This document shows positions 13,023-30,643 of a DNA stretch of 64,000 nucleotides, in pieces (the first letter of the stretch is position 1; every line of letters starts with the position of its first letter). The notes beneath the pieces were generated by a model. The model had not been told where the DNA came from, searched no databases, and worked only from the letters and a program-made list of their open reading frames with translations. Location of the stretch: the NCBI RefSeq assembly GCF_003790525.1, contig NZ_CP033635.1; one strand, 5' to 3'. The translations under genes and the position numbers were made by a program. Source of the DNA: Escherichia coli (lineage in GTDB: Bacteria > Pseudomonadota > Gammaproteobacteria > Enterobacterales > Enterobacteriaceae).

Positions 13023-14381
13023 TTAATTCACCTCAGAAATCTCTTCCAGCGACACCTTCCGCGTTTCGATGCCAAAAATGGAGAGAACCAGCGCACAGAG
13101 CACTAACATGACACCAAGCACCATAAACACCGTAATCGACCCATAATGTGTTAATAATGCCGCAACGCCATAGGGCGTGAAGACTGCGACGATCCGTCCG
13201 ACGGCATTAACGAAACCCGAACCACGCAGGCGTAAATGCGTTGGCCAAAGTTCCGGGATATAAACCGCCGACGCGAAGCACACATACATGTATAAAAAGA
13301 AGATCATCACCAGGCCATAGATTAAAATCGCCCACTCTGTAGTTTGAATTGAATAGATATAGCCTAACACAGCAATAATAATAAGTAAGGCAGAGCCAAA
13401 TAATCGACGAGGAAAATGATCAATAATTAATGCCGCAATAAATATCCCTACCGGAGCGCCAATCATAATAACAGCGGTCATTAATATTGATTTATCAACA
13501 TCAATGCCGGAGTTAACAAATATGGTCGGTATCCATACGGTGATGGTATAAAGCGAAATGTTCATTGCAATTAACACAGTAATCGCGACTAATGTACGTC
13601 GTAACATTTCCCCTTTAAACAGGAGCCAGAAGGTACCCTTGATTACCTTAACCTTGCTGTTGCTCTGGTTCAAAGTAAGCGGGGGTAAACGAATACTCTT
13701 CTCTCTTTCAATTTGCTGCTCTACTTCACGAAGTTGGCTTTCTGCACCTGCGATTTGCCCTTTCCCTGCCAGCCATCGTGGCGACTCAATAAAGTATTTA
13801 CCTGAGAGAAACCAGGCTAACAGTATGCCAATACCGCCCAGCAGAAACATTATCCGCCAACTAAAAAAAGCGATAACCACCACGCCTATCGCCGCAGACA
13901 GCATGGGCGACCAGTTACCAACAAATGAGAGCCGCGCGGACCATTTTCCACGCACCGTCGCGGGGATAAACTCCGTAAATGAGGCATAGCCAACCATAAT
14001 CAGCGCCCCCATTCCTGTGCCCATCAGGAAGCGAAAGAAGATGAGCCAGTACATATCAGGGACAAAAGCGGCCCCTGTTGCCGCAATACCGACGATGAGA
14101 AGATTTATGCGAAAAGCCCTGCGCCGCCCAAAATAATCACCGATGAACCCACCGGTAAGAGAGCCGATGAAATAACCAAACATTAATGCCGAGGTAAAGG
14201 CGGCATTGAGGAAATTATTTGACCATCCATTGCTTACCAGCTTTGCTAAAACAACATTGCCTGAATAACTCAAAAAACCCGTTAATAACAGACTAAAGCT
14301 TATAATACCAAATATACGATAATGAAACCGGGCCAAAGGCAAGCGGTCCAGTCTTGCGCCAATTTGATCATATTGTTCCAT
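13023..14381 (-). CDS. ydjE: MFS transporter (sugar/metabolite porter type)
   Basis: 452 aa, multiple hydrophobic helices; ATG start verified. Confidence 0.88.
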   Translation of the reverse strand: MEQYDQIGARLDRLPLARFHYRIFGIISFSLLLTGFLSYSGNVVLAKLVSNGWSNNFLNAAFTSALMFGYFIGSLTGGFIGDYFGRRRAFRINLLIVGIAATGAAFVPDMYWLIFFRFLMGTGMGALIMVGYASFTEFIPATVRGKWSARLSFVGNWSPMLSAAIGVVVIAFFSWRIMFLLGGIGILLAWFLSGKYFIESPRWLAGKGQIAGAESQLREVEQQIEREKSIRLPPLTLNQSNSKVKVIKGTFWLLFKGEMLRRTLVAITVLIAMNISLYTITVWIPTIFVNSGIDVDKSILMTAVIMIGAPVGIFIAALIIDHFPRRLFGSALLIIIAVLGYIYSIQTTEWAILIYGLVMIFFLYMYVCFASAVYIPELWPTHLRLRGSGFVNAVGRIVAVFTPYGVAALLTHYGSITVFMVLGVMLVLCALVLSIFGIETRKVSLEEISEVN

Positions 14382-14497: not shown

Positions 14498-15256
14498 TTA
14501 CCACACCAGCTGGATATTATTGTCTTTGCAAAATGCTATCCACTCTGCACCCGGTGATTTATCAGTTATTATGTAATTAATATGACTAAAGTCAGCTAAC
14601 TGGACAAAAGCTTTGCGATCAAACTTAGAGTGATCAACCAATAACGCAACTTCTGTCGCCTGACGGATCATTGTCTTTTTGATTTCAGCTTCCGCTTCGT
14701 TAGAGTCCAGCGCGCCGCTGTTAATATCAAGACCTTTACAACTCATTACCATGATATCGACATGGTAGCGGCTGATGATCTCTTTAGTAATTCTTCCTTG
14801 CAGGGAAAGTGTATTTTTGTTTAGTTCCCCACCCGTTGAAACGACTTTAATTTCTGACTGAGCCAGAACATGAATCGCTTCCGCCGAGTTGGTTAGCAAC
14901 GTCAGGTCACTACGGTCCTGTAACAATTTGAGCAATTCCATTACGGTACTACTGGAATCGGCTGCCATGGTGGTTTTATTGTCGACAAAGGGTAGTGCCT
15001 TGCGTGCAATAAGCTGCTTCTCTTCATAAAACGATGAAGCGCGCTTATAAAAATGGATATTCTCCGTCAACATCGCTGTATTTAAAACAGCACCACCATA
15101 GGTTCTGGTCAAAAAGCCTTCATCTTCCAGCTTCTCAAGATCGCGGCGAATGGTTTCTTCGGTTACCTGAAAAATCCCACTCAAATTTGAGACTGTCACC
15201 TTTTTATCGTTGGCAACCATTTGCTTAATTGCCTGAATCCTGTCTTTTGCCGCCAC
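14498..15256 (-). CDS. ydjF: DeoR-family transcriptional regulator
   Basis: 252 aa; N-terminal HTH and DeoR-type sugar-phosphate sensor domain; GTG start. Confidence 0.88.
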   Translation of the reverse strand: MAAKDRIQAIKQMVANDKKVTVSNLSGIFQVTEETIRRDLEKLEDEGFLTRTYGGAVLNTAMLTENIHFYKRASSFYEEKQLIARKALPFVDNKTTMAADSSSTVMELLKLLQDRSDLTLLTNSAEAIHVLAQSEIKVVSTGGELNKNTLSLQGRITKEIISRYHVDIMVMSCKGLDINSGALDSNEAEAEIKKTMIRQATEVALLVDHSKFDRKAFVQLADFSHINYIITDKSPGAEWIAFCKDNNIQLVW

Positions 15257-15392
15257 GATTACACCCCTGTATCTTTTTACATCACATTAGCGCGATTATC
15301 GCATAACCGATGTTTACTTTCAAAATAACCTGTTTGAATCACAGATTTTCATTACAGTTTTCACAGAAACAGAGGTGAATCGTGTTGAGTAT

Positions 15393-20657: not shown

Positions 20658-21734
20658 TTATTCATCAAAGTCGTAAGTCATGATCACTTTGATTGCGGTT
20701 TTATCGACCATCGCATCAAACCCTTCGCGCCATTGCGACAGGCCGATACGATGCGTGATCATCGGTTTGACTTTGATAGCGCCGCTGGCTAATAGCCTGA
20801 TAGCGTTACGCCATGAGGTGGAGTCATAGGCCATATGCCCAATGATGCTTTTGTTCCAGGCGGTAATGTCATTAATCGAGAAATCAAGAGGTTTGAAGCC
20901 CATTCCAACGCGTACCACTTCCCCATTCGGGCGGAGCATTTCGATGGCTTGTTTCAATGCGATATTGGCACCGGAGCATTCAATCACCAGCCCCAGATTG
21001 TCTTTGCCACAAATTTGCTGGCAGCGTGCCACCACATCTTCGGTAGAACCATTTACTACTGCCGTCGCACCCAGTTCTTTTGCAACCGGGAAGCGGACCG
21101 CCACATCTTCTTGTAGACCAACGACGACGATATTTACCGCCCCCATAATCCGCGCCATTTGTACGGAGAACAGTCCGAGTGGGCCAGTGCCGATGACGAC
21201 TACATCCTGACCAGGGAGGAATTTCGATTGCTGCGCGATGGATTTGTAGGCATTGCAGATAGGGTCAAGTACGGCTGCGTCCTCATAATCAACACCATCA
21301 GGGATTTCCCACAACGCATGACGATGAATTTTGAGAATTTCACCAGGAACCAGACAATATTTGGAAAAACCACCGCCCCAGGTATTGTTATCCAGACCAA
21401 GGTTTACTTTTTCTGTACAACACAGAAAATCACCTTGTTCACAGGCCGGACAAACGCCGCAGACGTGACCGCTGTTATCTGACACGACGCGTTGCCCCAC
21501 TTTCCAGTCTTTGACTTTTTCACCAACCTGCGCAATACAACCTGCGAACTCATGGCCGCGGATAGAGTTAAACTCATCAGAACCGCTATCGACATTGTAG
21601 TGCTTCATGTCTGCGCCGCAGATTGCCGCGGCTTTAATTTCAATCACGACATCTTCCGGGCCACAAATGGGTTGTGGCACATCGATCATCTTGTAGCCGC
21701 CAAAGGCTTTGCCAAACCGAGCCAGTGCTTTCAT
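20658..21734 (-). CDS. ydjL: Zn-dependent dehydrogenase
   Basis: 358 aa; GHEFAG catalytic zinc motif and CxxCxxC structural zinc motif. Confidence 0.88.
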   Translation of the reverse strand: MKALARFGKAFGGYKMIDVPQPICGPEDVVIEIKAAAICGADMKHYNVDSGSDEFNSIRGHEFAGCIAQVGEKVKDWKVGQRVVSDNSGHVCGVCPACEQGDFLCCTEKVNLGLDNNTWGGGFSKYCLVPGEILKIHRHALWEIPDGVDYEDAAVLDPICNAYKSIAQQSKFLPGQDVVVIGTGPLGLFSVQMARIMGAVNIVVVGLQEDVAVRFPVAKELGATAVVNGSTEDVVARCQQICGKDNLGLVIECSGANIALKQAIEMLRPNGEVVRVGMGFKPLDFSINDITAWNKSIIGHMAYDSTSWRNAIRLLASGAIKVKPMITHRIGLSQWREGFDAMVDKTAIKVIMTYDFDE

Positions 21735-21805
21735 TGCGTCATCCTCTGTGTTTTGTTTTGCTTAGATGGTCATCATACTTACCCACATGATTTTTGAGGT
21801 CAACA

Positions 21806-21856
21806 TTAAATCTGTAAAACACAGATAATGATCTGCGTTTTACAACTCAGATCACA
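21806..21856 (-). promoter_or_regulatory. candidate operator cluster upstream of ydjL (repeated CAGAT/ATCTG inverted repeats)
   Basis: ATCTG at 21810 and 21831, CAGAT at 21822 and 21848, forming overlapping inverted repeats 70-120 bp upstream of the ydjL start. Confidence 0.35.
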
Positions 21857-22103
21857 ATTACGCAGAAAATGGCTGGAGCTGTTACAGGTTGATGGAAGGC
21901 GGAACGCAAAATGAGCAAATTTGAGAGGGATTACCGGCCAAATAGGTCTGAGACTTAAGTTCAGGAGAAGTCATTCAGGCGTGAACGCGACTGCAAGAGA
22001 CCGGACTGGGGCTTTGCCTGGTCGTGACGAGATAATTGAGATGAGTCGTGGGGTTATTGTTGGCTATCCCCTTTATAACCGCGGCAAAAAGGGGACAAAC
22101 CAC

Positions 22104-22376
22104 TTACTTAAACATGGCAATTGGCTTTGCTGAGATACCAAAATCTTCTTTTAACTGTTGTTTGCTCTTCATGACCATCTGACCATTTGTGTCAATTGTC
22201 ATATGCTGTGCTTCGGTATTATGGCGGGCTTGCCACAGCATCACCAGTTGCAGGCAGTTCTCTTTTTGTTCCTCGGTCAACGCAACGCCATCAGGCCATT
22301 TCCCCAATTCAACGGCGGTCGACAAACGCTGGTATACCTCAGGCGTCATGCTGTTGATAATGTCATCAAGATTCAT
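22104..22376 (-). CDS. yeaC: DUF1315 family protein
   Basis: 90 aa from MNLDDIINSMTPEVYQ; the ORF-track 15-codon extension would overlap msrB. Confidence 0.8.
   Translation of the reverse strand: MNLDDIINSMTPEVYQRLSTAVELGKWPDGVALTEEQKENCLQLVMLWQARHNTEAQHMTIDTNGQMVMKSKQQLKEDFGISAKPIAMFK

Positions 22377-29347: not shown

Positions 29348-30643
<1,296 letters not shown>

Follow-up and report, generated by a model that had tools for sequence, protein, structure and literature searches.

The window analysed here, a stretch of 64,000 nucleotides of Escherichia coli DNA (contig NZ_CP033635.1), carries the ydj gene cluster in the order ydjLKJIHGFE between positions 13023 and 21734. The first gene, ydjL (20658-21734, minus strand), has its start codon at 21734 and is separated from yeaC (22104-22376, minus strand) by a 369-bp spacer. 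This spacer holds an array of short repeats, the probable operator at which YdjF, a DeoR/GlpR-family regulator encoded in the same cluster, would repress ydjL. The first-pass annotation of this DNA, made from the letters alone, had reported four pentamers upstream of ydjL combined as ATCTG-N7-CAGAT and CAGAT-N4-ATCTG, and direct reading of the sequence bears out every position: ATCTG occurs at 21810-21814 and 21831-21835 and CAGAT at 21822-21826 and 21848-21852, the array lying 72-122 bp before the start codon. The two pentamers are found 157 times in the window and only at this place do four of them fall within 46 bp, a density that was matched in one of 300 first-order Markov simulations, each of the whole window. 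The runner-up, three copies at 29711-29780 within the yeaH coding sequence, looks like a chance group.

Read in the direction of ydjL transcription, the region is TAATTGTGATCTGAG TTGTAAAACGCAGAT CATT ATCTGTGTTTTACAGAT TTAATG TTGACC -17- AAGTAT. The pentamer array is real and dense, but its units are 17-bp boxes set 21 bp apart and not the overlapping 5-mers of the first-pass annotation. The boxes are of the ATCTGT-N5-ACAGAT type, most of the information being held by the outer TCT and AGA, and three of them, here designated A, B and C, were recognised (Table 1). The -35 hexamer follows 23 bp after the upstream edge of box B, and box A starts a further 21 bp upstream, inverted relative to the best reading of box B; an inverted repeat with 15-bp arms and a 4-nt loop extends from 21812 to 21845. 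The fourth pentamer, at 21848, belongs to box C, where it stands in a separate TGTGATC element (21850-21856), and box C may be read as a YdjF half-box (ATTTGTGA) or as a half-site resembling that of CRP. Counted from the transcription start that the predicted -35 and -10 hexamers would imply if they are the promoter, near 21767-21770, the approximate extents are -58 to -42 for box B, -79 to -63 for box A and -91 to -75 for box C. A published fusion of the ydjL 5' untranslated region (UTR) plus open reading frame, from a study of Rho termination, starts at window position 22211 within yeaC, and transcripts reading in from such a yeaC-internal start would cross the operator array. The region of Rho-dependent termination lies about 144 nt into ydjL (~21590), between the promoter and the intragenic box described below.

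Table 1 Features of the ydjL and ydjF regions and best matches of the Firmicutes/Actinobacteria matrix in the window.
Feature	Position	Strand	Sequence or remark
Box C	21843-21859	minus	AATTGTGATCTGAGTTG; overlaps box A by 5 bp
Box A, weaker auxiliary box	21831-21847	minus	AGTTGT-AAAAC-GCAGAT, 9/12 arm positions matched
Box B, predicted primary operator	21810-21826	minus	ATCTGT-GTTTT-ACAGAT, perfect 6-N5-6 palindrome
Predicted -35 of ydjL	21798-21803	minus	TTGACC; TTGA invariant in 22 Enterobacterales
Predicted -10 of ydjL	21775-21780	minus	AAGTAT; A.TAT kept at fixed 17-bp spacing
Possible half-site, low confidence	21742-21754	minus	AAAACACAGAGGA, 5' UTR; perfect match to box right half
Candidate intragenic operator of ydjL	21411-21427	minus	TTCTGT-GTTGT-ACAGAA, perfect 6-N5-6 palindrome, rank 3 in window
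Distal weaker box of ydjF	15352-15368	minus	TTCTGTGAAAACTGTAA; 22 bp above proximal box; 4.4-4.9 bits
Proximal box of ydjF	15330-15346	minus	ATCTGTGATTCAAACAG; starts 23 bp before ydjF -35
ydjF promoter	15295-15323	minus	TTGAAA-17-GATAAT
ydjF, DeoR/GlpR-family regulator, predicted binder	14498-15256	minus	Pfam HTH_DeoR 3e-17, DeoRC 3.5e-49
Matrix scan, rank 1 (box B)	21809-21825		24.3 bits
Matrix scan, rank 2 (ydjG-ydjF spacer)	15331-15347		17.2-18.4 bits
Matrix scan, rank 3 (inside ydjL)	21410-21426		17.2 bits
Matrix scan, best match outside the ydj cluster			13.6 bits

For comparison, 58 loci encoding YdjL relatives were fetched, one genome per species, about 40 of which carry true orthologs (76-99% amino-acid identity). 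The first-pass annotation had staked its operator proposal in part on conservation of the repeats upstream of orthologous ydjL genes, and the array proved to be kept in the 22 Enterobacterales aligned. The alignment disclosed a conserved block running from box C to the ATG; similarity to E. coli between genera starts exactly at box C, and the DNA above it is unrelated. Every aligned sequence shares the TGTGA.C of box C, the TCT..TT..A.A.ATT of box B, the TTGA of the -35 and one A of the -10, and the 17-bp spacer leading to AAGTAT, AATTAT or AACTAT is likewise conserved. All 22 share T25, G26, T27, G28, A29 and C31 of box C (TGTGA.C, 21856-21850), which is more strictly kept than any part of box A, itself conserved in Escherichia, Citrobacter, Klebsiella, Raoultella, Yokenella and Budvicia. 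The enteric sequences are related, and their conservation is to be read as a footprint and not as a set of independent sites. Within E. coli the boxes are identical in SMS-3-5, whose sequence NC_010498.1 the window matches at 100%, in K-12 MG1655 and in CFT073.

The surroundings of this block differ. In Citrobacter and Klebsiella, yeaC and ydjL are separated by an HNH gene and a chitinase gene, while in Enterobacillus and Budvicia the cluster occupies a wholly different neighbourhood and the array moves with it. In the cryptic Escherichia clades the yeaC-proximal half of the spacer is unalignable; one segment above the array, TTTTGCGTTCCGCCTTCCATCAAYCTGTAAC (21881-21912), is kept between E. 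coli and these clades despite its diverged surroundings, and is partly recognisable in Citrobacter.

In Firmicutes and Atopobiaceae the ydjL orthologs are 77-85% identical to that of E. coli and their upstream DNA cannot be aligned with it. An expectation-maximisation (EM) motif search was run on 12 Firmicutes/Actinobacteria ydjL upstream regions alone, at widths of 15 and 17, and gave the motif AATCTKTRAAACAAAGA, often present as tandem copies 20-21 bp apart. At width 12 the search converged on an A-rich low-complexity motif, and enrichment of 7-mers in the Firmicutes upstream regions against a coding background, which returned A/T-rich words only, was set aside in favour of the EM search. 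The resulting matrix was scanned over both strands of the window, about 128,000 positions, and its three best matches all fell in the ydj cluster (Table 1), the first of them on box B. The same three sites score highest in a 21-kb locus of Klebsiella oxytoca and rank near the top in Enterobacillus and Budvicia. In the reverse direction, a matrix was derived from box B of the 22 enteric orthologs, and its best match fell no more than 300 bp upstream of ydjL in nine of 11 non-enteric loci (4-21 kb). The geometry is shared as well, for in five Firmicutes species a -35 of TTGACT or TTGAAA lies 24 bp beyond the start of the promoter-proximal copy, and the Firmicutes ydjL promoters are near-consensus, several with an extended -10.

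The regulator predicted to bind these boxes belongs to the same cluster and combines the HTH_DeoR and DeoRC domains. A 252-amino-acid DeoR gene follows ydjG in Faecalicatena, Atopobiaceae, Megamonas, Klebsiella, Enterobacillus and Budvicia, so that orthologs are present in all six clusters fully examined, from three phyla, and the conserved motif occurs together with the regulator. The YdjF orthologs are 50-88% identical overall, and residues 31-44 in the helix-turn-helix region, VTEETIRRDLEKLE, are identical in six of six aligned orthologs of three phyla, Megamonas being the exception (DLGKLA versus DLEKLE in the helix region). The boxes of Megamonas sp. UBA1796 (L073:9940-10000), ATGTTT-ACAAC-AAACAT and ATGTTT-AAAAT-AAACAT, keep the 6-N5-6 design and the 21-bp spacing; their arms are changed, and they lie downstream of the -10. 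To judge by these sequences, the regulator and the boxes have changed together in Megamonas, a co-variation seen in this one genus.

A site is also found before the regulator's own gene, where the rank-2 match of the scan coincides with the proximal box at 15330-15346. In E. coli the spacer between ydjG and ydjF has the sequence TTCTGTGAAAACTGTAA-5 bp-ATCTGTGATTCAAACAG-6 bp-TTGAAA-17-GATAAT, and its layout, box-22-box-23-(-35), reproduces the box-21-box-23-(-35) of ydjL. The proximal box is conserved in Klebsiella and Budvicia, in which the TTCTGTG of the distal box is kept too. Paired boxes are phased by whole helical turns, at 21 bp for ydjL, 22 bp for ydjF, 20-21 bp in Firmicutes/Atopobiaceae and 21 bp in Megamonas. 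The ydjF hexamers TTGAAA/GATAAT were identified as a constitutive promoter, bound by RNA polymerase alone, by genomic SELEX (systematic evolution of ligands by exponential enrichment; PMC3946193). Just before the ydjF start codon, at 15265-15284 and distinct from the boxes, lies CCCTGTATCTTTTTACATCA, a degenerate LexA site proposed from chromatin immunoprecipitation on microarrays (PMC3542263).

The third match of the scan lies within ydjL and covers codons 103-108 (FLCCTE), 399 bp downstream of box B, a distance that is the same in E. coli, Klebsiella and Enterobacillus; the box is also a top match in Klebsiella, Enterobacillus and Budvicia. When six-codon windows of ydjL were compared among 24 Enterobacterales orthologs, the entropy at third codon positions was lowest precisely at this box (0.20, with a mean of 1.02 over the gene; rank 1 of 353), and the flanking codons vary freely. 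A possible further half-site, AAAACACAGAGGA in the 5' UTR, overlaps the Shine-Dalgarno sequence and is kept as AAACACAAAGGAA in Citrobacter and Klebsiella, a conservation that is inseparable from the constraint on the ribosome-binding site.

Taken together, the comparative evidence supports the proposal of the first-pass annotation that the repeats form an operator array with YdjF as the candidate binder, and it is probable that YdjF represses ydjL from these sites. Two details of that proposal did not hold. The annotation had called ydjF adjacent, while ydjF comes seventh in the cluster, some 6.5 kb from the array, and has a promoter of its own; and it had regarded the position as typical of a repressor operator, while the array, although upstream of ydjL, sits at about -42 to -91, just above the -35 and off the core promoter, so that position alone does not indicate a repressor. 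We infer repression instead from the ydjF promoter, which has the same box geometry and binds RNA polymerase alone, from the near-consensus Firmicutes promoters, from the Megamonas boxes downstream of the -10, and from the behaviour of the K-12 ydjL promoter, which is silent in culture and becomes active in the mouse gut according to a study that called the regulation of the operon unknown (PMC6561318).

A mechanism consistent with this arrangement may be outlined. Without inducer, YdjF oligomers would bind box B cooperatively with box A, box C being perhaps auxiliary, and YdjF on boxes B and A would block the access of sigma-4 and of the C-terminal domain of the alpha subunit to the -35 and the upstream region. 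By analogy with DeoR, GlpR and GalR, YdjF may in addition bridge to the intragenic box, the loop trapping the promoter, and it would repress its own promoter likewise. As in other members of the DeoR family, the signal could be a phosphorylated intermediate, made here by YdjH, the PfkB kinase of the cluster, which would bind the DeoRC domain and free the repressor, for example in the gut. The kinase YdjH and the aldolase YdjI are known to prefer long-chain uronic sugars, the physiological substrate and its natural source being unclear (PMC9602453).

A number of observations weigh against this interpretation or narrow it. The boxes lie upstream of the -35 and not over the core promoter, an arrangement that fits an activator too, and the E. 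coli -10, AAGTAT, is weak, with three of six consensus positions, and would suit an activated promoter; FucR is an example of a DeoR-family activator. Box C is devoid of the TCT/AGA ends, and its invariant TGTGATC is a CRP half-site. Box A scores 0.6 bits with the Firmicutes matrix and is lost in Symbiopectobacterium, Enterobacillus and Serratia, where boxes B and C are retained. In Firmicutes and Atopobiaceae the region before ydjF has boxes that are weak or hard to make out, and the intragenic box is absent from the Firmicutes ydjL orthologs. The specificity of the motif was gauged over 64 kb of the E. coli genome together with the fetched loci. The only ydjL start used in the literature is that at window 22211, inside yeaC. 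YdjF is listed as uncharacterised (PMC4797297; PMC6055005), and no YdjF binding data, described ydj operator or YdjF regulog were found in the searchable literature, curated regulon databases being outside this search.

The alternative that keeps most weight, though it is doubtful, concerns box C, at which CRP or another host factor would bind TGTGATC and add catabolite control to that exerted by YdjF. The element contains TGTGATCT, which is a perfect left half of the CRP consensus and is invariant in the 22 Enterobacterales, and the centre of the box is about 80 bp above the inferred start, near class I positions. The missing TCT/AGA ends of a YdjF box favour this assignment. The right half-site, however, is absent, with TTGTA/TTGTG in place of TCACA, and is not kept in the outgroup genera; by our own calculation a 7/10 match to TGTGA-N6-TCACA is expected hundreds of times per 64 kb, and Faecalicatena, an organism lacking CRP, also has ATTTGTGA as the left half of one of its boxes. 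Targets predicted by genomic SELEX of CRP include ydjF, whose upstream boxes also contain TGTGA, but ydjL is not on the list (PMC3105977).

It is unlikely, slightly more so than the participation of CRP, that the boxes are YdjF sites from which YdjF activates, binding at about -50 and -71 and recruiting RNA polymerase when its effector is present. The array lies wholly above the -35 at a distance that is fixed in enterics and Firmicutes, and the poor -10 hexamer of E. coli points in the same direction. Against activation stand the Firmicutes promoters with their near-consensus hexamers and, in several, the extended -10, and the Megamonas boxes, whose position downstream of the -10 is able only to repress; most DeoR-family members are repressors. 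Silence of the ydjL promoter in culture (PMC6561318) would be expected of an activated promoter as well, but the ydjF promoter with its identical box geometry is bound by RNA polymerase alone (PMC3946193).

It is highly improbable that the inverted repeat works instead at the RNA level, as a hairpin that attenuates or terminates transcripts reading in from upstream. The segment 21845-21812 is called terminator-like on the ydjL strand, its RNA folds at -18.4 kcal/mol (z = -3.7), and the yeaC-internal position 22211 has been used as the start of the ydjL 5' UTR. The features of an intrinsic terminator or structured RNA are nonetheless missing: four of the 15 pairs are G-C, the stem is A/T-rich and its tail, AUUUAAUGUU, is a poor U-tract; covariation is not seen, 447 of 500 shuffles pairing as well and a single cell being compensatory; no 3' end was detected at ydjL by Term-seq, and no Rfam match was found. 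Three genera have lost box A and kept box B, the boxes of Firmicutes run as direct repeats and are unable to fold into a hairpin, and Citrobacter and Klebsiella, with a divergent gene upstream, should have no transcript reading in. Of the five differences usually seen between the arms, four are transitions, all of them G-U-compatible on the ydjL-sense strand. With a chance of about 1 in 16 these transitions are a weak hint, which the protein-site model leaves unexplained.

A chance arrangement is excluded by the simulation, the cross-phylum matrix scan and the conservation in 22 Enterobacterales, and another palindrome system has next to no likelihood, since a LexA box, suggested by the resemblance of CTGT...ACAG to LexA half-sites and by the degenerate site at 15265-15284, was rejected on its spacing (CTG-N7-CAG in box B and CTG-N12-CAG in GATCTG...CAGATC, as against the N10 of LexA boxes; PMC3542263), and a Dam-methylation switch, suggested by the two GATC sites flanking box A at 21830 and 21850, was rejected for lack of strict GATC conservation, the proximal one being polymorphic in E. 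coli (CAGATT in ETEC4090 and O157) and in several Citrobacter. The sole link to GalR is an in-silico site inside ydjI, which is irrelevant to the ydjL array.

The arrangement proposed for YdjF has parallels in well-studied systems. GlpR, of the same family and with a sugar-phosphate sensor domain, controls glpD through tandem and intragenic operators that act at a distance, as found in the Larson laboratory. Its tandem operators lie about two helical turns apart by the promoter, like boxes A and B with their 21 bp, and its operators inside the structural gene are comparable to the intragenic box under synonymous constraint; in contrast, the box sequence is another, the strong box of ydjL is above the -35 and not over the -10, and the intragenic box is about 400 bp away. 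At deo, DeoR binds the palindromic operators O1, O2 and OE as an oligomer, and loops formed between sites separated by hundreds of bp reinforce the repression; the ydjL array could loop in a similar way with the site 399 bp away. The DeoR operator, however, is a 16-bp palindrome, TGTTAGAA.TTCTAACA, overlapping -10 regions, whereas the YdjF boxes are 6-N5-6, have different arms and stand above the -35. The gal operators OE and OI, one at about -60 and the other inside the first gene, flank the promoter and repress by looping, much as box B at about -50 and the intragenic box might do, but GalR is of the LacI family and its operators are 113 bp apart as compared with 399 bp at ydjL. The reasoning by which the boxes are assigned to YdjF is that of RegPrecise-style inference, in which a motif common to orthologous upstream regions is matched with a cluster-encoded regulator and with that regulator's own gene.

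The cluster itself fits an accessory, horizontally moving cassette, as the yeaC-ydjL spacer is present in 4333 of 5426 complete E. coli genomes (one match comprising the yeaC-proximal part only), the neighbourhoods differ between genera, and Firmicutes YdjL orthologs are about 80% identical to that of E. coli. Variation is also met within E. coli. In O157 strain TW14588 (L072:676-692, equivalent to window 21810-21826) box B has ACATGT and not ACAGAT, which destroys its AGA end, and the neighbouring GATC is missing too; the exact 66-bp variant of this type occurs in 298 complete genomes, those sampled being mostly O157:H7. A tentative view, with somewhat less than an even chance of being right, is that the ydj cluster is a self-contained, horizontally transferable cassette that brings its regulator, a promoter-proximal array and an autoregulatory array of the same geometry, plus, in enterics, an intragenic operator under synonymous selection; a YdjF loop of about 400 bp would enclose the promoter, and in O157:H7 a 2-bp change from ACAGAT to ACATGT would have impaired the main operator in part and altered how this gut-induced pathway is expressed.

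In kind, the array would be an ordinary operator array for a cluster-encoded DeoR-family regulator, although YdjF is among the remaining uncharacterised transcription factors of K-12. The intragenic site is a clean example of a regulatory element that is detectable purely from suppressed synonymous variation. In a genome-wide screen of promoters, that of ydjLKJIHG was among the two sensors that responded most consistently to the gut, and a defined motif provides coordinates and precise mutations for work with reporters and electrophoretic mobility shift assays, valid for K-12 because its boxes are identical. The motif may further offer a route to the inducer, by screening for release of YdjF from DNA, and a handle for engineering the ydjL promoter as a gut biosensor.

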